Part shown: in pieces, positions 9,185 to 54,559 of the stretch
Position numbering within the stretch: position 1 is the stretch's first letter
Layout: every line of letters starts with the position of its first letter
NCBI GenBank assembly: GCA_964016885.1
Contig: OZ024741.1
Location: 223,262,001 to 223,326,000, forward strand
Source of the DNA: Eledone cirrhosa
Taxonomy: Eukaryota
Direction of reading: 5' to 3'
Length of the DNA stretch: 64,000 nucleotides
Made by a program: the position numbers and the translations under genes
Notes under the pieces: model-generated
Seen by the model: only the letters and a program-made list of their open reading frames with translations
Database searches by the model: none
What the model was told of the DNA's origin: nothing

Positions 9185-9481
9185 TCATGCTTTAATAACC
9201 TCTTCTTCGGCTTCTTTACTCTTTTCCATTTCCTCTGTTTCTTTCTCATTTTCTTTTTCATTTTCTTTTTCATTATCATCCTTTTTCTCCTTCTCTTCCT
9301 CTTCTTTCACTTCAGCTTTCTCCTCCTGTGTTTCTTCAGTTTTTTCTTCATCTTTTTCCAATTCTTTTTCCTCCTCAATTTTCACCACCTCCTTCTCCTC
9401 CTCGTCTTTCACCACCTTCTCCTCCTCGTCTTTCACCACCTTCTCCTCCTCGTCTTTCACCACCTTCTCTTCCACCTCTTC
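9185..9481 (-). CDS. Glu/Lys-rich terminal exon (98 aa) of the minus-strand host gene
   Basis: Acceptor ctctattccAG|GAA GAG GTG in phase 0; open to TGA at 9185-9187; EEVEEKVVKDEEEKVVKDEEE...EEEVIKA*; contains a 24-nt tandem repeat. Confidence 0.75.
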   Translation of the reverse strand, partial: EEVEEKVVKDEEEKVVKDEEEKVVKDEEEKEVVKIEEEKELEKDEEKTEETQEEKAEVKEEEEKEKKDDNEKENEKENEKETEEMEKSKEAEEEVIKA

Positions 9482-9611
9482 CTGGAATAGAGATTGGATT
9501 TCAAAAGCAAAGATTACAAATGGACATTGTCCTTTCTGTTGTCAGTTAGTTAGAACTGCTACCCCTCTCAAATATACTATGACATGATAACAATTCATAA
9601 TAATGACAATG

Positions 9612-9733
9612 AATAATAATAATAATAATTGTTTCTACTTTAGGCACAAGGCCAGCAATTACCCAGTACGTTACTGGTACTTTATTTTATCGACCCCGTA
9701 AGGACAAAAGGCAAAGTTAACCTCGGCGGGATT
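9612..9733 (-). mobile_element. Young SINE family B, 5'-truncated at the B box
   Basis: (AAT)n-TGTTTCTACTTTAGGCACAAGGCCAGCAATTACCCAG...AACCTCGGCGGGATT, near-identical to copies at 18004, 35572 and 36679. Confidence 0.85.
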
Positions 9734-10826
9734 TAATAATTATTTCATTTATTGGCCACAAGGGCCGACATGTAGGGGACAATACAAAGACAGGGACAGT
9801 GGGGGTTTACAATAAGGTCGAGTAAAAGTCCCCAATGGCAAGACTAATTTAACAATGAAGATATAAAAATATAAAATAAACTATGCATAAATATAACAAA
9901 ATAAATTCCCCTATAGGGGTGGACGACCCAGGGGTGACTCAGGTACCTCACCAATCCTGAACCACCCTGCGCTTCTAGGGCACCCAGGGAGAGCACCCCT
10001 CTCCTCAAGTTAGCTAGCCTATAGGCGTATGGTTAGAGTAGGCCCATTCACACGGGCCATTCTCGTCACATTCCTCTACCTTTTAGCAAATGTACTGGGG
10101 CCAGCACTTCTCTCTCCACTCTCACCTTCCTTTCCAGGTGAAACTTGAAGAAGTTGATGAGGGATTGGCCGAAGAGAAAAGTGTCTGTCTTCAGTCATTT
10201 TAACCTGGTTCACCATATAACCTCTTTCCCAACGGCCACCAGTCAAAGGAAAATTGCCTGCTCTTCCTGACCAAAGGAAGGTGGCGGGTCGATCTTCACT
10301 ATGGACTCGGCTGATAGCTGGATCTGTTCCACACGCGACAGTAGCTGTTCGACATAACTCCACAAGTCAGTAATGCACGGACATTGGACAAGTGTGTGCA
10401 GAACGGTTTCGTCACTCTGCGCGCATCCCAGGCAGGTCCGTCTGACAGCACTTCCATGCCTGTAGAGTTTACCCCGAACCGGCAGTGCCCCCTCGGTAGC
10501 ACTGCCAAGTGAGGGATTTCTGGAAATTGTCCATCGTCCCCGCTTGGTAGAGGGCAGTGAGTGCCTGGCAACATTCCAGGTGCCAGTCACCCAGTCTCGG
10601 TCTCTTCTTGACCCAGGACTGCAGCCCAGTCAAAGAAACGAGCTGCGGAAAGGCCTGTCTGATAAACAGCGACCTCACCTGTTCACCGTTTAGGTAGAAT
10701 ATTTGGAGATGTCGCAGCCTCAGCGCATGTCTGCGCATCATTAGCCACGGCATGCCCAGCCCTCCGCGTAGAGGGTGCTGGCAGCAGATGGACCGCCTCA
10801 CCAATGGAACTTGTCCTTTCCACAAG
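9734..10826 (-). mobile_element. 5'-truncated L1/Tx1-clade non-LTR retrotransposon (ORF2 C-terminus plus 3'UTR), frameshifted
   Basis: WKGQVPLVRRSICCQHPLRGGLGMP (post-RT GGLG motif of L1/Tx1) and zinc knuckle CLGCAQSDETVLHTLVQC; GC-rich island; ends AATAAATGAAATAATTATT on the minus strand. Confidence 0.8.
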
Positions 10827-10827
10827 G

Positions 10828-11041
10828 TAATAATAATTTATGCACAAGGTCAACAATTTGTGGGGAGGGGAAGTCAATTACATTTACTCCAGTATGTGAC
10901 TGGTACTTTATTTTATCAACTTCAGAAGGATGAAAGGCAAAGTTGACCTTGATGGGATATGAACTCAGAATGTAAAGGGTCGTAACTAAATGTTGCACAG
11001 CATTGTGTTTGACACTGACAATTCTGTCAATCCACCACCCT
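10828..11041 (-). mobile_element. Older full-length SINE family B
   Basis: Tail GCACAAGGTC, body CTGGTACTTTATTTTATC...GAAAGGCAAAGTTGACC, B box rc TGAACTC, head rc CAATCCACCACCC. Confidence 0.8.
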
Positions 11042-27199: not shown

Positions 27200-30100
27200 A
27201 CTTAGAATCCAAGCTTTCAATTTTATTCGTTAATTCTGTCAGACCCACAAAAACAATCTCCTTGTATTTAAACTCTGATTACTGTTATACGTTCATTTAA
27301 TAACCTTCTCGTATTTAAACACTGATTACTGTTATACGTCCGTTTATAGGTTTTGATTAAAAAAAATAACCTTCTAGTTAACTTCCCCATATCCTCCCGC
27401 CACCCCCACTCACCACCATTATTAGATGGTCCAATCATAATTCAGCGGCTTATAATATGTTTCTCTTACCAATCTCTTACACAAAACCACCGCCTCGGCT
27501 ATCACTCCTTAAGTTTAGACCTGGTTGCTTTTGATATGCTAGATGAACTGTGGGATTCTGGAGAGTACGAAGAATCTGGACACTCAAATGACAATGTCAA
27601 ATATAAAGATAAATTCACCTCATGTGGCCGGACGAAAATGCAAGGACTCCGCTTTATTTCTGACACGGATGGCTAACATAACCCCATCTCCCTCACCCCT
27701 CCCTACGCCTCCAACCCATCCCTTCCACCCATCAAACGAAATCCAAAACTTCAGAGTTGGTACCATGAATGTAGGTACCTTAAAAGGTTGCTCTAACGAG
27801 GTTGTAGAGATGCTTGAACGTAAGGAAGTTGATGTTTGTTACGTCCAAGAGACTAGGTGGAGGGGTGGGTCTGCTAGATTCATTGTGGGTAAAAAACGAT
27901 GCTATAAACTTTTCTGGATGGGAAATGACAATGGGCTGGGTGGAGTAGGAATCATGTTAGCAGAAAAATGGGTAGATAAGGTAATTGACATAAATAGAGT
28001 GAATGACAGAATAATTAAAATAAGACTTGCCCTAAATAGAACTACTGTGACAATAATATCCGCTTACGCACCCCAATCTGGACTGCCTGGCGTTATAAAA
28101 GACAGATTCTATGAGTCGCTAATGCTCACTACCTCCCAAATAACCGACAGCGACTACATAAATATTGCTGGCGACCTAAATGGTCATGTTGGACAACATT
28201 GTGACGGCTATGACGGAATCCATGGAGGCTATGGGTTTGGTACCAGAAATGAGGAAGGCTTCAGAATTCTGGAATTCTGTGACGCAAATAACCTAACTAT
28301 CTGTAACACAAACTTCAAAAAACGAGACAATCACTTGATCACCTATAGATCAGGGGAACACGCCAGTCAGATAGATTATATCCTTACCAGAAGACGTGAC
28401 AAAGTGTCAGTTGTAAACATTAAATCACTCCCCCGTGAAGAATTCACCTCCCAACATAGCCTCATAGTTAGTGACCTCATAGTCAGGACGAAACGTACTC
28501 GACAACAGAGGAGGACCACCCTGAGAAGAAGAATATGGAAGTTAAAGGACCCCACAGCCAGTAATAAATTTAAAAGCATACTACTTGATGCTTTTGACAG
28601 TAAGGAAGAGCAATTAGAGTCGTACAATATAGAGGAACAGTGGGAATTCCTGAAAGTTAACCTGCTGAAGGCGACAGATGAAATCTGTGGCTGGAGCAGA
28701 CCTATAGGCAGGGGGAGAGTAACTTGGTGGTGGAACAGTAAGGTGGAGGAGTCAATCAAGGCCAAAAAGCAAGCTTGGAAAGTATGGCGGGATGGGGGAA
28801 TTAGAGAACACTATCAAGTGGTCAGGAGGGAAGCTAGGAGACAAGTGTACCTTGCAAGAAGGGAAAGAAAGTTCAAGCATGTTCTACAATGCGAGGACCA
28901 AAATCGTGAGGTGTTCAGGATTGCTAGACAATGTGTCAAGGAAAACTGTGATATTGTCGGGGGGAAGTGTGTCCATAATGATGATGGTATACTTGCAATC
29001 ACTGATACTAATAAGAAGGTAGCTTGGAAGTGTCACTACGAAAGGCTACTAAATGAGGAGAATAAGTGGGAAAAAATAGTCTGCCCCAAATCGATCCAAT
29101 AGAGGGACCAGCAGTGCAAGTTGAAGGTAATATAATAAGTAAGGCAATCAAAGATATGAAGACAGGCAAAGCAGCTGGGCCTTCGGAGATAGTTGCTGAA
29201 ATGCTGAAAGCATCTGGATCGGTGGAACACACTATGGTCTCCCGGATAGTAAACCAAGTCATACAGAATGGGGTTATACCAAATGACTGGCGTAGCAGCA
29301 TCATCATTAACTGCTACAAGGGTAAAGGAGATGCCCTAGATAGGGGAAACTATAGAGGCATTAAATTAATTGACCAGGTCATGAAGGTCACAGAAAAAGT
29401 TTTAGCGCAACTAATCAGAGAGCACAGTTATTGCACAGCTGATTAGGGACCAAATTGATCTAGATGAAATGCAGTTTGGGTTTGTGTCAGGTAAAAGTAC
29501 CACAGACGCTCTTTTCCTTGTACGACAACTACAAGAGAAGTACCTAGCTAAAAGTAAACCCCTATACTTAGCTTTTGTTGACTTGGAGAAAGCCTTTGAC
29601 AGAGTCCCCCACTCCATTATCTGGTGGGCTCTTAGAAAACTAGGTGTTGATGAATGGCTCGTGAGAGTTATACAAGCTATGTATAAAGAAACAGTCAGCA
29701 AGGTTAGAATTAACAACGAATATAGTGAAGAATTTAGCGTAAAAGTCGGTCTTCATCAGGGCTCTGTCCTTAGCCCCCTCCTATTTATTATTGCCCTTCA
29801 GGCTATAACAGAGGAGTTCAAGACCGGCTGCCCATGGGAACTATACGCTGATGATCTAACGCTCATAGCTGAATCAATGGCTGAACTAAAGAAGAAATTC
29901 CAAACATGGAAGCATGACCTAGAATCAAAAGGCCTTAAAATTAACTTGTCTAAGACTAAAGTTCTAGTATGTAGGAAGGAAAATAGGGCACTGGTCGTCT
30001 CTGGGAAATGGCCATGCTCAGTGTGTAGGAAAGGAGTAGGCAGAAACTCCATTTTATGTCCCAAATGCAAAGTATGGGTGCATAAAAGATGTAGTGGGAT

Positions 30101-31180
30101 CACAGGTAAACTAACTAAGAACATAGATTTTATATGTGGCCGGTGCCCAGGTGAAATAAGTAGTAGCAAGTGCCCACAGGATACTAGCTCCTTCCATTGC
30201 CCAGATGGTTCTATAGAAATAGTGGACACCTTCCGTTACCTGGGTGACAAAATCCGCAGTGGTGGAGGGTGCTCTGAAAGTACAGTAGCTAGAGTCAGAA
30301 CGGGATGGAAAAAGTTCAGAGAGCTTATACCACTATTGGCCGCTAAAGGTTTCTCTCTAAAAATGAAAGGCAGACTGTATGATACCTGCATACGAACAGC
30401 AATGTTGCATGGCAGTGAGACCTGGGCATTGTGTGCAGAGGACCTGCGCAGACTGGAGAGGAACGAAGCTTGCATGCTCCGTTGGATGTGTAATAGTAAT
30501 ATACGTGAATGGCAAAGCATAAATGAACTAAGTGAGAAATTAGGAATAAGAGGGATCAGATGCTGTTTACTCGAGAGAAGACTACGTTGGTACGGTCACG
30601 TGATGCGCATGAAAGACGACAGCTGTATAAAAAAGTGCAGGGCGATCAAAATAGATGGAAGCCACGGAGTAGGCAGACTCAGAAAAACCTGGGACGATTT
30701 GATAAATTCCGACCTTACACACTTACACCGCTTCAAGATAATGTCACTGGACCGAGATCTTTGGCGCTGCGCAGTAATACAGAAGACCCGCCTACAAAGC
30801 GAAACCTACAGTCAGTAGGCACCTCTTAATCAAATATACACCCCCATCCCAATACCCCTACTCCCACCTCCATCTACACCACCCCATTGTCTGTAAAGTT
30901 ATGTTGGTGCTACAACATCCAGTCCTAAATAAATGAGGTCGTGTAGGTGTCATGACAAAAAAAATACACAGTCCACGCTGTAATGTGGCCGTGTAGGTAA
31001 CATGGTAAAAACCTCCCAGTCCACACTGTAAATGTGGTTGGTGTTAGGAAGGGCATCCAGCCGTAGAAAACCTGCCAGACAGTCCTATACGAGCAAGACA
31101 ACCAATCTTGCCTCACATGGGACATTTCCCGTCTAAACCCATGCTAGCGTGGAAGATAGACGTTAAATGATGATGATGAT
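27200..31180 (+). mobile_element. Near full-length RTE-clade LINE (5' boundary uncertain)
   Basis: APE endonuclease plus RT coding region, 3'UTR with ~40-bp repeats, ends GACGTTAAA(TGA)n at 31180; flanked by TA-rich microsatellite. Confidence 0.92.
27543..30818 (+). pseudogene. RTE ORF2 (APE endonuclease - RT with PHD finger) broken by two frameshifts
   Basis: EN motifs GTMNVGTL, VQETRW, SAYAPQ, GDLNGHVG, SQIDYIL, SQH; RT motifs NYRGIKL, QFGF, DLEKAFD, HQGSVLSPLLF, YADD, GLKINLSKTK, FRYLG; RTE C-terminal LRWYGHVMRM. Frameshifts at the A6 run 29071-29076 and at 29426. Confidence 0.92.
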
Positions 31181-34150: not shown

Positions 34151-35571
34151 TACAATGTAATATGGTAATATTCTGTTATGTGGTGGTCTTATTGTACTGT
34201 GATTTGATTTTGGAAAATACACCATGACTACAAAAGAAAGGTGCTGACAGTCAGATTAGATTAGAGAAACAATAATTCTATTGATCTTTCCATTTCTGAT
34301 ACTATCTGACGGTTGCAGCTCCTGGCAGAAGGAGCATCATGGAATAAAGAATTTTGGTCAAGAAAACACTGTGTTGCCTGGTCCAGGAATCAAACCTACA
34401 GCCTTATGATTGTGAGTTTAACACCCTAACCACTAGGCTATGCACTGTCACAATAGAAAGAAAGAAGAGAGAAAGACTGGAAAGAGAATATCAATTAAAA
34501 TGATTGAAAATGAAAATAATTAGTCAAACAGTTCTAGTGCCCACACTAAAAAGGAAAAAGAAAATATTCAAATTAGGTATATTTTTAACTTAGAAAACAT
34601 TTAGAAGTTTCACGGTGCTGATACATTTTGGTTGTTTACTGGTGGTTTCGTTAATTTTTCTTTTTTAAAGAGTAAATCTAACTTTTAGTATAAAACTTTG
34701 AGAATAATAAACAGAAAACACAACAAAGAAAAAAAGCACACTCACACAACATATGTTCATTCCATCTCTAACAGAATCATTTAGCTCAAAGAACAATAAT
34801 AATAATAATAATAATATGCAAAAAAAGTTCAAACAAATTCTAAAAAGAAATAGAAAATGTTGAAAATCTTTAAAATTATGTAAAAAAAAAAAATAATAAT
34901 TTAATAGAAGTAAGAGACCTATAAAAAAATATGAAAGAAATAAAGAAAAGTTAAAAGATAAAACAAAAAAGAAAGAAAGAAAGAAAATGGTAAAAACAGA
35001 GCCTAATTTTAGAGAGAAAATCACTTTGAAACTTTATAATATTAGAAGATCATTTCAGAAGCTATTCTGAGTCAGATTCCAATCTTTAAAAAAAATATAA
35101 AAATAAAAAAGAAAGAGAAAGGGAGAGAAAACCATGTGGAAAGTGTGAAGTAGAGAAATCAGTGTTTATAGTCCTGGCTAAACTTAGCTAAACAGTGCAA
35201 TGTTGGTAGAATCTCAGAGGAAATAGCAAGAAATAAAACTGGAACACAGATTGGGGAATGGGGGTGTGGTGTAGTGTAGTGTAGTGTAGTGTGGTATGGT
35301 GTATCATGGACAAAATGAATAAATAAAATGTTCTGGAAAAACAATGAAAGGCATAAATAAAATTGAAGTTTTAAGAAAAAGGGGAAATTAGAAAAGGAAC
35401 ACAACATCAGACCTATATGTGTATGTATGTGCATGTATGAATGTAAGAAAACCAAGTAGTTGGATGAACTGGGGTAAACTGAAAATAACTGTGTATTGAT
35501 TGAGGTTGGTATTTTAAAGACATGGTATTAGGAATAGATTACAAAAAAATAATAAAATTAACAGAAATAAT

Positions 35572-35977
35572 TGTTTCTACTTTTGGCACAAGGCCAACAA
35601 TTACCCAGTGCATTACTGGTACTTTATTTTATCGACCCCGTAAGGATGAAAGGCAAAGTAAACCTCGGCGGGATTTGAACTCAGAATGGCAAGGACCGTA
35701 ACTCTATGCGTCAAAGCATGGCGTCCGACCCTCTACCGATACTGCCAATCCAACAGAAATAATGATGTTTAATTTAGGCACAAGGCCAGTGGTTTGGGTG
35801 AGGGGAGAAGTCGATTATATCAACCCCAGTATTTAACTGATACTTTATTTTATCAACCCCAGAAGGGTGAAAGGTAAAGTTGACCATGGCAGGAGGGGAA
35901 CTCAGAATGTAAAGAGCCAGAGCAAATGCAACTGAACATTTGTCCGAGGCTCTTACAACTCTGTCGGTCCACCTTCC
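35572..35977 (-). mobile_element. Young SINE-B (35572-35751, 12-bp TSD AACAGAAATAAT) abutting an older copy (35764-35977)
   Basis: TSD at 35560-35571 and 35752-35763. Confidence 0.88.
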
Positions 35978-37118: not shown

Positions 37119-37403
37119 CATCACAATGTGCTAGTGCAAGCACTTTTGAAGATGGTGGTAGCAACAAAGACAGGTCTAAATAAGAAGCAAAAGTACTTTA
37201 ATAAAATTGCACATTTGATGATGTTCTACATGACCCTTCTTCCTTCACACACTACACACCTCAGAAATGTTACCTGCCACCAACATCAAATCTGGAATAA
37301 TTCAAACTTAATACTACTAAGTCCACAAGGGCCTGAAAAGGATATGGACACTGATCCTACATAGTGTTTACTTCTTTATGGGCTGGATTTAAGCCTTGTT
37401 TCA

Positions 37404-50605: not shown

Positions 50606-51629
50606 ACTATTACTTTTTGTTACTATGATAATTATTTATAAGTTGTAATGTGAGAGTAGAGTGTGCGCCATAAGGCTATCAGGTGTACCAATGTATAAAA
50701 CACATTTAAATATGACAGTTCATATGGAAACTGTTTGACCAAAAGACAAGGTCATAAGTAAACTAGAAGTCTGTCATGTGTTTCAAGGTGGAGGAAGGCA
50801 TTCTGTCAGTTACGATGACGAGTGTTTCAGTTGATCCGATCAATGGAACAGCCTGCTCGAGAAATTAACGTGCAAGTGGCTGATCATTTCATAAAAACAT
50901 GCATAGCCTTAACATAGTTCTCAGGGAGATTCGGCGTGACACAGAATGTGATAAGGCTGGCCCTTCGAATTACAAGTACAACTCATTTTTGCCAGCTGAG
51001 TGAACTGGAGCAAAATGAAATAAAATGTCTTGCTCAAGGACTCAGCATGCTGCTAAGAATTGAACTCATGACCTTACGATTGTGAGCCGAATTCCTTAAC
51101 CACAAAGCCACGCACCTTCACGTGTTCCAATGTAATGCATATTTAAATGGTGTATTAGTTTATATGGAATCTGTTTGACCAATAGACATGGTCTAAGATA
51201 TTGGTATAAAGTGGAAGGATGAATGAACGGCATGGGATAGTAGAGTCAGTGTTGCTATAACATAATGTCAACACAGCCAGCATGGTCAAATGATTAAGTT
51301 TACTTCATAATCATGAACATCCAAGTTCAATCCCACTGTATGGCATCTTAACATATGTTGTTGTTTTTTTTAATATATCATAGCATTGAGTTGACCCAAG
51401 TCTTGTGAAAACTGTTTGGATAGCATTCAGGTGGTGTCTATAATTCATATGGTTAGCCATGTCACATTGAATCTCCTTAAGAGTACACACATCTGCAGAA
51501 TATTCAGTTACTGATATGTTTATTTAATATTGAGGAGGTCAATCCATTGACCAAACAAGTAGAAAACATTGTCAAAACCAATGGGGATGAATTTCTTTAG
51601 CATAGTAAATTAATTACCATTAACTTTAG

Positions 51630-52135
51630 TAGTATAGCCAGTTAAAGAGAAAGGGTAAGTAGTATAGCCAGTTAGAGAGAAGGGTCAATAGTAAAGCCAA
51701 TGAAATAGTAAGGGTCAATAGTATAGCCAGTTAGATAGTAAGGGTCAATAGTATAGCCAGTTAGATAGTAAGGGTCAATAGTATAGCCAGTTAGATAGTA
51801 AGGGTCAATAGTGTAGCCAGTTAGATAGTAAGGGTCAATAGTGTAGCCAGTTAGATAGTAAGGGTCAATAGTGTAGCCAGTTAGATAGTAAAGGTCAATA
51901 GTGTAGCCAGTTAGTAAGGGTCAATAGTATAGCCAGTTAGATAGTAAGGGTCAATAGTGTAGCCAGTTAGACAGTAAGTGTCAATAGTATAGTCAATGAG
52001 ATAGTAATGGTCAATAGTATAGCCAGTTAGATAGTAAGGGTCAATAGTATAGCCAGTTAGATAGTAATGGTCAATAGTATAGCCAGTTAGATATTAAGGT
52101 CAATAGTAAGGGCCCAGTTAGGGAGAGGGTTCAAT
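51630..52135. repeat. 30-bp minisatellite, ~16 copies
   Basis: Unit GTATAGCCAGTTAGATAGTAAGGGTCAATA, contiguous, most homogeneous at 51721-51900. Confidence 0.95.
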
Positions 52136-54559
52136 AACAGTCAGTTAAAGAGAAGCTTCAATGGTATAGCCAGGTAGAAAGAGTTTTGTGGTAGGTTAAC
52201 TACAGCTTACTACTTAATGATTAGCCAGATTAAGGAGCTACCATGACAGGTTCAATATTGTAGCCAGGTAAAAAGAACACCAAGGCAGAATCAATATGTG
52301 AAGCAACTGGAGTCTATTATCCTGTTTCAATATACTATTGTAACTATTCCACTTCATCTGTGCCTCTAATTACTTTATAAATCAAACATATTTTGTCTCT
52401 ATAAGACATCAATATAACGATCTAATAAATATCCACAATAGGTGTACATTACACAGAGTAGGCAGATGACAAAGTAGCCAGTTATGTTCAATATTACAGT
52501 CTAGTATATAAGGGTTTATTGGACTTCTGATCATAATGTTGAGGGTTCAATTCCTGGGTGGGCTGATGTGGAGGTGCATGGCCTAGTGGTAAGGGTGTTG
52601 GACCTTCAATCATAATGTTGTGAGTTTGATACCTGGGCTGGGTTGCGTGTTGTGTTCTTGAGCAAAACACTTCATTTCACATTGCTCCAGTATACTCAGC
52701 TGAAAATGAGTACCAGCAATAGCTGGGGGTTTAACCCTGTGATGGACTGGCATCCTGTTCAGGGGAAAGTCTTGTACTCTCAGTCGTTTCACGCTATGAA
52801 ACCAGGATAAGCACCAGTCAAATGAGCCTTCTGGCTTGAGACAGATTTGATGTATAGACCCATAATTCCAGATGGAGTCATAGGGGCACCTAGTGATATA
52901 CAGTGTTATACCTAGTGATACACAGCCCATTTCTTCAAAAACAACAGGAGAGATAAAGAGAGAGATGAAGTGAGAAAGAGATATAGAGGAAGAATCAACC
53001 CTAGTATTGGATTGGTATTTCTTTTTATCAAGCTCAGAAGGGTGAAAGACAAAGTTGACCTTGGCAAGATATGAACTCAGTGTGTAGAGTGTTGAAACAA
53101 AGCATTCTACCCGATGTTCTTATGGCTCTACCAATTTACTGCCTATATTTCCACCTAATATATTATATGATATCACCACTAGGGTAACATGATAAACATA
53201 CATTATAGTACAATCAATATCATAGTTCTATATAGAAACCTACTGTTTCTATATAGAACTATGATATATGTGACAGACAATAAGATACCTATCTGGCTTT
53301 GGACAGAGACTACTGTAGTAATATAATACTATAATAAAAGATATAAGATATACAACAAGGAGGAAAAGTGATATTGAACAAAGCCTAAAGTACTGTAGCT
53401 TTGAAACTATTCCGTGATTGAGAATATAAATATATTCTCAGCTTGAGATAAAAAAAAAGTTGTAAAACAAGCAAATGTAAAAGGAAATAAATATACATGA
53501 AGCTAAATTTTAACTAGAAATTTCTTTCAACATAGAGAAGTTGTTTTTAGTTCAAGATCAATAAAAAAACAACAACAACAAAAACATCTGAATTACTTCA
53601 GATGCACTGAACAAACAGCTAAAATTATCTGATTTGCTTCAATTCCATTGGATAAACAGCTTAATTAGATAAATAGATTCAAATTTTCCAGACCAATACA
53701 ATATTTTTCAATAACAAGAATCTATATGTCTGGTGCAGACCTTCAGTTTCCACAGCACAAAACATAAAAAATATTTCCTGGCTAGGTTACTAGTTTACTC
53801 CAGGTAGCATTCTCTGCAGGGAAAATGGAACTTAACCCAAGAAGCCAATGAAATACACATCGTTTCTACAGTCAGTGCTACTGCTATCAACAGTAGATAA
53901 TTATACAATGCAATGTACCTACTTACTACTAAGTAGATTTGGCTACTGAGACACTATAAACTGCCAACTCTCATGATGGGTTTTTGAATCCTTACTGGTT
54001 CTATCATCCGTGTTCATTCAAATTATTAACCAACCGAATTTGTCAAGTAGTGTAAGGTCAAATTACCAAAGTCTAAACATTTCCATCAAAACCAAAAACA
54101 AACATTAACTGAGGTTCTTCTAAAGAAATTATTATAATTATAACTATGGGTGTGTTGAGAAACTTAAGTTTACATAAGAATTTCAATATTTTATTTACTT
54201 TGCTACAGAAATTAGGTGTTTTGTAAGATTGTTGTTTGTAAAATTCAACTAATGGAAAGTTGAGATATGTATATAAACCTTAAAGATATCAAACTGTAAA
54301 ATAACATTGAAGTCATTATATATTTTCACAGGTTTCCATTAATGGACTGTATTCACAGGTTTCCATTAACAAACTGTATTCAAGAGTGTAGTTCATTATT
54401 TTATTAAACTTGGAAGCATGAAAAGTAAAATAGATATAGATGATGTGAACTTCATACATATATGGAACAAAATACATATATATGTATGTATATATAAGTA
54501 ATTTTTTTAAATACTATAACTATAGGGATTGCAATCACAGAATAAAAGTCAGTTGTGAC

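Follow-up and report, generated by a model that had tools for sequence, protein, structure and literature searches.

Organisation of the repeat cluster

The window, that is, the whole stretch of 64,000 nucleotides analysed here (Eledone cirrhosa, GenBank assembly GCA_964016885.1, contig OZ024741.1, positions 223,262,001 to 223,326,000, forward strand), contains a cluster of retroposons at positions 9615-11040. Along the minus strand, a SINE-A, a LINE and a SINE-B follow one another, each set apart by short (ATT)n. The central element is a decayed, 5'-truncated copy of a Tx1-like LINE, referred to as family A (9741..10826, minus strand), which was delimited by translation, by alignment to 59 other loci and by its 5' junction. 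It consists of the end of ORF2, which contains stops and an internal deletion of ~135 nt near 10542, and of a 3' UTR (9741..10018) recognised from the sequence, the reading frame and the homologous stop of intact copies; the ORF2 stop itself (10019-10021) is the one present in intact copies. Close to its 3' end, the element harbours a hairpin with a 4-bp stem and a 5-nt loop (9754..9766), identified from the sequence, from other copies and from covariation; behind it come a canonical poly(A) hexamer (9748-9753) and a spacer. The short (ATT)n run past the LINE end (9734..9740) reads as target or target-site duplication (TSD) rather than as a proven templated tail.

Directly downstream of the LINE lies a 5'-truncated SINE-B copy (9630..9734, minus strand; repeat family D18), recognised by its sequence, with its own hairpin at 9643-9653 and an (ATT)5 run behind it (9615..9629). 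Directly upstream is an older SINE-A of the long form (10838..11040, minus strand), placed by its sequence and junction, whose ATT run (10828-10837) is abutted by the 5' junction of the LINE. A near full-length SINE-B, used as reference, is located at 35572..35757 (minus strand), with a hairpin at 35585-35595, Pol III A-/B-box-like motifs seen by eye, and a 12-bp TSD (35752-35763 and 35560-35571). Both 3' ends quoted in an earlier sequence-only reading of this DNA were recovered. The LINE hairpin, with at most one mismatch, occurs twice in the window against 0.04 expected, the second match, at 37321, not being an element end, and the SINE hairpin has 13 matches against 0.42 expected, a number reached by none of 100 shuffles. 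With regard to the surroundings, a Glu/Lys-rich open stretch, preceded by AG and closed by a stop, is present at 9185-9485 (minus strand) and may be the terminal exon of a gene of the host, in which case the repeat cluster would be intronic. A tandem array with a 30-nt period occupies 51616-52187.

A Tx1-like LINE lineage

Full-length relatives of the LINE measure ~5.95 kb and contain two ORFs, ORF1 followed by ORF2, the latter comprising Exo_endo_phos (AP endonuclease), RVT_1 (reverse transcriptase, RT) and zf-RVT domains. A CCHC knuckle in ORF1 is a feature of the Tx1 clade; here, translated ORF1 shows a CCHC-like motif by eye and gave no Pfam match. The Xenopus Tx1 ORF2, used as query, led to a young subfamily in which an intact 1150-aa ORF2 is found at 29 of 30 loci, with ~99.6% identity between copies. 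Identity amounts to 90% for Tx1-C and 96% for Tx1-B, values taken among top matches and hence biased upward. Among named proteins, the closest to the LINE comes from Argonauta hians (70% identity), and the ESM Atlas returned only generic RT clusters. An RT survey of stretches spread over the genome (864 kb) revealed Tx1-like, R4, RTE and CR1 families; Tx1-like RT formed the largest class, and an L1-proper RT was the best match nowhere in these 864 kb.

The sequence-only reading had assigned this LINE to the Tx1/L1 clade and proposed to place it by RT phylogeny. In a tree of 24 out of 38 rows under a simpler model, built without R4, whose RT could not be aligned, the LINE joins L1/Tx1, apart from CR1 and RTE, with 100/98 support, to be read with a long-branch warning on the two outgroups. 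The LINE also matches human L1 ORF2p with an E value of 1e-47, compared with 2e-19 for R2. The L1-group assignment thus holds, whereas the Tx1 placement itself is carried by 61/36 for the grouping with Xenopus Tx1 in the best tree (83 in a quick tree), an L1-like grouping not being rejected (p-AU 0.135). Between Tx1 and L1-like the tree does not decide; the bit scores favour Tx1 (265 bits for Xenopus Tx1 versus 192-194 for L1-like frog proteins). In summary, the LINE firmly represents an abundant and recently active lineage of the L1 group, within which it appears most similar to Tx1, with weak tree support. Of note, the young intact family occurs in head-to-tail arrays joined via (ATT)n (L272-L300 with L301-L320), and these arrays also mix families B and C, SINEs, the CR1 family CR1a and opposite-strand R4 elements, with ATT runs as landing pads.

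The LINE 3' hairpin

A tail-free query, consisting of ORF2 only, retrieved 30 loci, one of which is the window itself. All 29 others extend through the same hairpin and come as close as 8 nt or less to the repeat (22 carry the hairpin unchanged and 7 with a single substitution), four of these loci being shared with another search set and two looking like one duplication; 28 continue into ATT, and one has no ATT run. Since copies found without any tail in the query all run through the hairpin, the latter is the LINE's own 3' end. Together with its presence in the young intact subfamily, where all 30 copies have it, this excludes an origin of the LINE end as a SINE tail remnant abutting the element, a case that the earlier reading had named as fatal to its proposal. 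The young subfamily carries the same stem as the window, which is therefore not a private variant of this copy.

Three sister families, B, C and D, have kept the 5-nt loop with a stem altered on both arms, ORF2 identity among the four families ranging from 53% to 75%. In B, C and D, a poly(A) hexamer or a close variant directly follows the hairpin. A covariation alignment of 11 hand-chosen rows (seven LINE and four SINE ends) scored 0.49 compared with 0.24 when shuffled, above all slid controls and with none of 500 shuffles as high; because the rows are related, this result is not a probability. The extended 7-pair stem behaved likewise (0/500 shuffles as high), and the fourth stem pair fails in 6 of 10. 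When folded, the window hairpin shows pair probabilities of 0.93-1.0 in three contexts, and the inner pairs reach 0.86-0.99 in four LINE UTRs; in one family A context of 80 nt, the minimum-energy fold lacks the hairpin.

The motif is lineage-specific, since the 7-letter motif was found within 600 nt of the stop in none of 58 distant metagenome relatives (~30% identity, ORF of at least 700 aa, out of 80 loci); deep conservation of the loop was thereby discarded. The loop is altered in Tx1 copies ending in other microsatellites. Among these, Tx1-like families with a variant loop end in TATC/TC-type microsatellites (L131:1-600, L234:2175-2500, L265:7677-8000), possibly as a result of a target switch inside the lineage. 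A further GC-rich hairpin was noticed at the opposite end of Tx1 family B, just before ORF1 and ~150 nt into the element (L240, minus strand). In 8 of 15 copies its loop equals that of the 3' hairpin, and the homologous site of family A (L303, L259) has a U-rich loop. Such 5' UTR hairpins could represent a second protein-binding or a translation signal. An end taken for that of a hairpin-bearing 'family E' turned out to be this 5' UTR of family B.

SINE-A and SINE-B

SINE-B measures ~190 nt and corresponds to SINE-A minus 29 nt located just before the hairpin, so that sequence comparison marks it as a deletion derivative of the longer form. Tail matches in the 864 kb numbered 80 for SINE-B and 31 for SINE-A, and heads of an RTE-tailed SINE 28; what the earlier reading called the most abundant SINE indeed ranks first among the three short-repeat queries that were counted. 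By rough extrapolation from 80 matches in 864 kb, SINE-B would reach ~10^5 copies per genome. The 75 copies analysed, 47 of them near full length, are short, dispersed, TSD-flanked and often 5'-truncated, as expected of SINE2 elements. Their head displays A-/B-box-like motifs by eye, and neither ARAGORN nor Rfam gives a tRNA match. Median pairwise identity is 88%, and nearest neighbours are up to 98% identical, figures to be set beside those of Tx1-C and Tx1-B when asking whether the activity of SINE and LINE overlapped in time.

The hairpin motif and its exact spacing have been kept in SINE-A and SINE-B subfamilies with differing spacers and across the adjacent 29-nt deletion. Its predicted pair probabilities are 0.01-0.10 in three full-length SINE RNAs, and 0.83 when the last 40-60 nt of one copy are folded. 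A larger repeated unit brings along a diverged SINE copy whose loop is changed (L056, L061, L072, L073); this copy looks passively duplicated rather than like a loop variant that arose independently. Contigs from other organisms (two runs) cover the SINE hairpin with no variant at or above 15% and with a differing head, and one or two such contigs match the last 35 nt of the LINE and not the UTR before it; both observations lend weak support. The body of SINE-A/B appears to resemble that of the octopus SINEs OK, OR1 and OR2, and they probably belong to the same SINE stock.

The terminal region shared by SINE and LINE

As the sequence-only reading had proposed, SINE and LINE carry the same 5-nt loop on a GC stem. 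They share ~35 nt at the 3' terminus, the match being clearer for SINE-A than for SINE-B. The earlier reading had seen one base pair added or removed in the stem; in fact, the SINE aligns to the LINE ends without gaps, the second pair being flipped from C-G to G-C, and this changed pair still pairs. The similar spacing described there was recovered, the hairpin-to-repeat distance being 16 nt in the SINE as in families B and C.

The last 40 nt of SINE-A and SINE-B were scored against 12 LINE ends, including seven CR1, R4 and RTE ends. SINE-A tails scored 34-38 with Tx1-A ends, as high as none of 1000 shuffles, compared with 12-20 for the seven CR1/R4/RTE ends. In a null set of 399 sites, three or four reached 34-38, and the four highest-scoring sites listed are truncated SINE copies. 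SINE-B scored 21-29 with Tx1 ends, 22-25 with the CR1 family CR1b and 8-16 with the six others. Among the 12 ends, none from another clade was a better match, with CR1b the nearest for SINE-B. In a repeat-anchored comparison, all four SINE copies agree with family C at 17-18 of 26 positions, and with non-Tx1 ends at 2-10. Family C best matches the SINE-B end and family A the SINE-A end; the partner proposed earlier would therefore be the Tx1-like lineage, and not necessarily this very family.

Two points limit this comparison. In a sliding scan, SINE-B reaches chance scores of 26-32 somewhere in every multi-kb element tested, so that its tail match counts only as a terminal one. Moreover, the family B 5' UTR hairpin scores 30-37 with SINE tails, a level attained by 0 of 1000 shuffles.

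The survey of LINEs covered ~1.5 Mb of the 3.0-Gb genome, and in all CR1, R4 and RTE ends found in this part the loop motif is absent. CR1a ends in (ATT)n with a different hairpin. Where R4 families lie next to ATT runs, their terminal repeat is the reverse complement; R4 ends overall consist of the reverse-complement triplet or of a tetranucleotide, and RTE ends of other repeats. Several of these elements deserve mention in their own right. An RTE-clade LINE (window 29078-31175, plus strand) and a second SINE (L126:7925-8260) have a long shared 3' tail and an (ATG)n end, and from their sequences appear to form, within this genome, an RTE/SINE pair of the classical type. A young CR1 family with an ORF of 945 aa carries a different hairpin followed by (ATT)n and is devoid of TSDs (L081-L110). 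A very young R4/Dong-like family (L321-L340, L122:2802-6400) has an ORF of 1174 aa and a tetranucleotide-repeat end, and 150 of 150 among the matches listed are 100% identical over 241 aa.

Targets and target-site duplications

The target was assessed by searching for a five-letter piece of the repeat within 30 nt to the left of the insertion. Such a piece precedes 43 of 75 SINE-B copies, 24 of 37 truncated Tx1-A copies, 16 of 22 Tx1-B copies and all 20 young full-length Tx1-A copies, compared with 2 of 24 CR1a copies and none of the 10 RTE-tailed SINEs; among 5000 background 30-mers, 318 (6%) contain one. The difference between SINE-B and CR1a is significant (p=1.5e-5). For Tx1-C it was found at 2 of 12 junctions, several of which are probably not true 5' ends. 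The Tx1-like lineage has a target-sequence preference for (ATT)n, and the data support that SINE and LINE share this target, which CR1a lacks. Among the LINEs tested, a same-strand ATT target was observed only in Tx1-like families.

With regard to TSDs, 24 of 75 SINE-B copies possess one with unique sequence, compared with one in a mismatched control. The 12-17 bp reported earlier for SINE copies thus correspond to real TSDs with a slightly wider range (9-19 bp). As 19 of the 24 begin with the repeat, and the TSD starts right at it, the apparent (ATT)n tail of the SINE is largely the start of the TSD. The earlier reading had counted this tail in favour of the partnership; being shared by CR1a and mostly target in the SINE, it is not diagnostic. 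A Tx1-specific (ATT)n tail is likewise dismissed, since CR1a has it and 20 of 20 young Tx1-A copies are preceded by it.

At LINE junctions, TSDs do not exceed the control (14 versus 13, 10 versus 9, and 1 versus 1), and CR1a yielded none in 24 copies except two tandem-repeat artefacts. TSDs with unique sequence occur in 18 of 47 near full-length SINE-B and in 0 of 20 young Tx1-A (p=0.0006), a comparison to be read knowing that LINE TSDs lying in pure repeats are not measurable. This contrast may reflect another partner family, nested insertions or, in cis, the use of longer targets. The argument that SINE TSDs agree with Tx1 mobilisation consequently finds no confirmation, unique-sequence TSDs of the LINE not being found above control, and of the comparison suggested earlier, the shared target stands and a common TSD structure does not.

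Proposed mechanism and alternatives

The same hairpin motif at the end and the same insertion at ATT repeats make it likely that the SINE uses a Tx1-like copying enzyme. A partnership with the Tx1 lineage is, in our judgement, probable. The fuller reading, which we favour by a small degree, holds that SINE-A/B shares its last ~35 nt and its (ATT)n preference with an octopod lineage of the L1 group, likely of the Tx1 clade, whose ORF2 would copy the SINE using the hairpin as a handle. An ancestral SINE would have taken its 3' end from a Tx1-like element and kept the hairpin and the end; the poly(A) hexamer would have been lost, since a Pol III transcript would not need one. By analogy with L2 elements (available text of PMC4176376), ORF2 would bind the hairpin in cis on the LINE RNA and in trans on the SINE RNA. 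Its AP endonuclease would nick the strand complementary to an ATT run, and the freed DNA end would pair with AUU repeats just past the SINE end and prime reverse transcription. A second nick 9-19 nt downstream would generate a TSD beginning with the repeat, the apparent (ATT)n tail being largely target. New copies would supply new ATT runs, which would explain SINE/LINE pile-ups such as that at 9615-11040.

As in stringent pairs, the 3' end and the target are shared, but the TSD structure is not the same; a stem-loop with compensatory changes exists among the LINE families, and the SINE pairs are possible, at 0.01-0.10 in the full RNA. On this analysis, partnership and stringent recognition of the hairpin taken jointly might well hold, at a little under an even chance. 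More tentatively still, an animal lineage of the L1 group (Tx1) may recognise a 3' hairpin stringently and thereby have been hijacked by the commonest tRNA-type SINE of the genome. The young intact family, with ORF2 ~99.6% identical between copies, makes the question directly testable by assay.

A less demanding relation would be relaxed mobilisation by Tx1, in which AUU/ATT pairing suffices and the hairpin is a relic in the SINE or a 3'-end processing signal in the LINE. This is unlikely, though it deserves serious consideration: it would agree with the poor prediction of the hairpin in full SINE RNA, with its position right before the conserved poly(A) hexamer in LINE families, and with the published SINEU case, where the available text describes shared targets without a shared tail (PMC4494074). 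It fits less well with a motif and an exact spacing kept through spacer changes and the 29-nt deletion in SINE-A/B, and with a changed second pair that remains a pair. The real driver might also be another LINE, unsampled, extinct or from another clade, the likeness to Tx1 then reflecting old ancestry or convergence. The different TSD structure (18/47 versus 0/20), the modest tail match of SINE-B next to the 22-25 of CR1b, and a genome surveyed in part leave room for such an element, but the missing loop in the CR1, R4 and RTE ends found, the restriction of the same-strand ATT target to Tx1-like families among those tested and the predominance of Tx1-like RT in the spread stretches make it improbable.

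The SINE tail could alternatively derive from the Tx1 5' UTR hairpin of the family B type, for instance by template switching in head-to-tail arrays, in which case the 3' likeness would reflect related hairpins used at both element ends. Such arrays are common, and this hairpin, ~150 nt in, has the stem polarity of the SINE, an identical loop in 8 of 15 copies and scores of 30-37 against SINE tails (0/1000 shuffles). Set against this are a loop that is variable in the remaining 7 of the 15 copies of family B and not the same in family A, last letters and a 16-nt spacing of the SINE that fit 3' ends, and a discovery by scanning, where chance reaches 26-32; we regard this origin as very unlikely. 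Mere chance likeness of the two ends has hardly any credit. The shared part is admittedly ~35 nt with a stem of 3-4 bp, and SINE-B scores lie within the chance best-match range of long sequences, but the terminal position, SINE-A scores above shuffles and above the null sites that are not SINEs, and an independently shared target speak against it. We retain copying of the SINE by a Tx1-like ORF2, with the hairpin as its handle, as the preferred reading.

Comparison with known systems

Shared tails and Tx1-driven SINEs are already known as concepts. In crocodilians, SINEU was inferred to be mobilised by the target-specific Tx1-Mar from a shared target preference (Kojima 2015, PMC4494074). The present case is similar in that a SINE appears to be driven by the Tx1 group via a shared target. 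According to the available text of that work, however, SINEU elements begin with snRNA heads and end in poly(A), and a LINE with the same 3' end as SINEU-1 was not found; SINE-A/B, in contrast, have a head that by eye resembles a tRNA, and they share a 3' hairpin with the LINE. Insertion into simple repeats is a further likeness to Kibi, Koshi and the crocodilian Tx1 families, whose targets in the same source are (TC)n, (TTC)n, (TTCC)n and (TTTC)n rather than (ATT)n; the likeness concerns targeting, no close grouping in a tree being shown.

The octopus tRNA-derived SINEs OK, OR1 and OR2, which PMC4824008 and PMC4758252 credit to Ohshima and Okada 1994, come without mention of a Tx1 partner in the available portions of these two papers. 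In our comparison, contigs from other organisms share the body of SINE-A/B and not the head. For Octopus vulgaris, the text at hand lists both L1-Tx1 elements and SINEs as active, without pairing them (PMC13282606). A Tx1/SINE pair with a shared tail was not encountered in the literature searched; older papers on octopus SINEs or Tx1, Repbase and supplements lie outside this search and could hold one.

The 3' stem-loops of UnaL2/UnaSINE and ZfL2-1/2 also lie near a short terminal repeat and are proposed as a handle for ORF2; these belong to the L2 clade, and their role was demonstrated by binding and mutant assays (PMC4176376, available text), whereas that of the present hairpin is inferred. 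Shared tails within the L1 clade have been reported for ZmSINE2 and ZmSINE3 with LINE1-1_ZM in maize and sorghum, and for SINEX-3_CR with L1-1_CR in Chlamydomonas (PMC3472496, PMC3747384). As described in the accessible parts of these papers, the ZmSINE2/3 case resembles ours by a shared L1-clade 3' end, with a monocot hairpin that has a conserved loop and compensatory stem changes. These plant and green-alga pairs share 50-80 nt and end in poly(A) or poly(T), whereas the present candidate pair is found in an animal, shares ~35 nt and has microsatellite targets. Of the 58 pairs in the portion of Ohshima's survey available to us, three involve a SINE whose tail is of the L1 clade, each from a plant or an alga; the ancestral mode of L1 recognition, stringent or relaxed, is left undecided there (PMC3747384). 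If the proposed partnership is true, it would be the first shared-tail Tx1/SINE pair, would name the driver of a SINE at roughly 10^5 copies and would offer a natural test of stringent recognition as the ancestral state of the L1 clade. A covarying Tx1-like 3' hairpin with a SINE partner would extend stringent recognition to the animal side of this clade, tail sharing by L1-group elements being confined to plants and algae in the literature searched.
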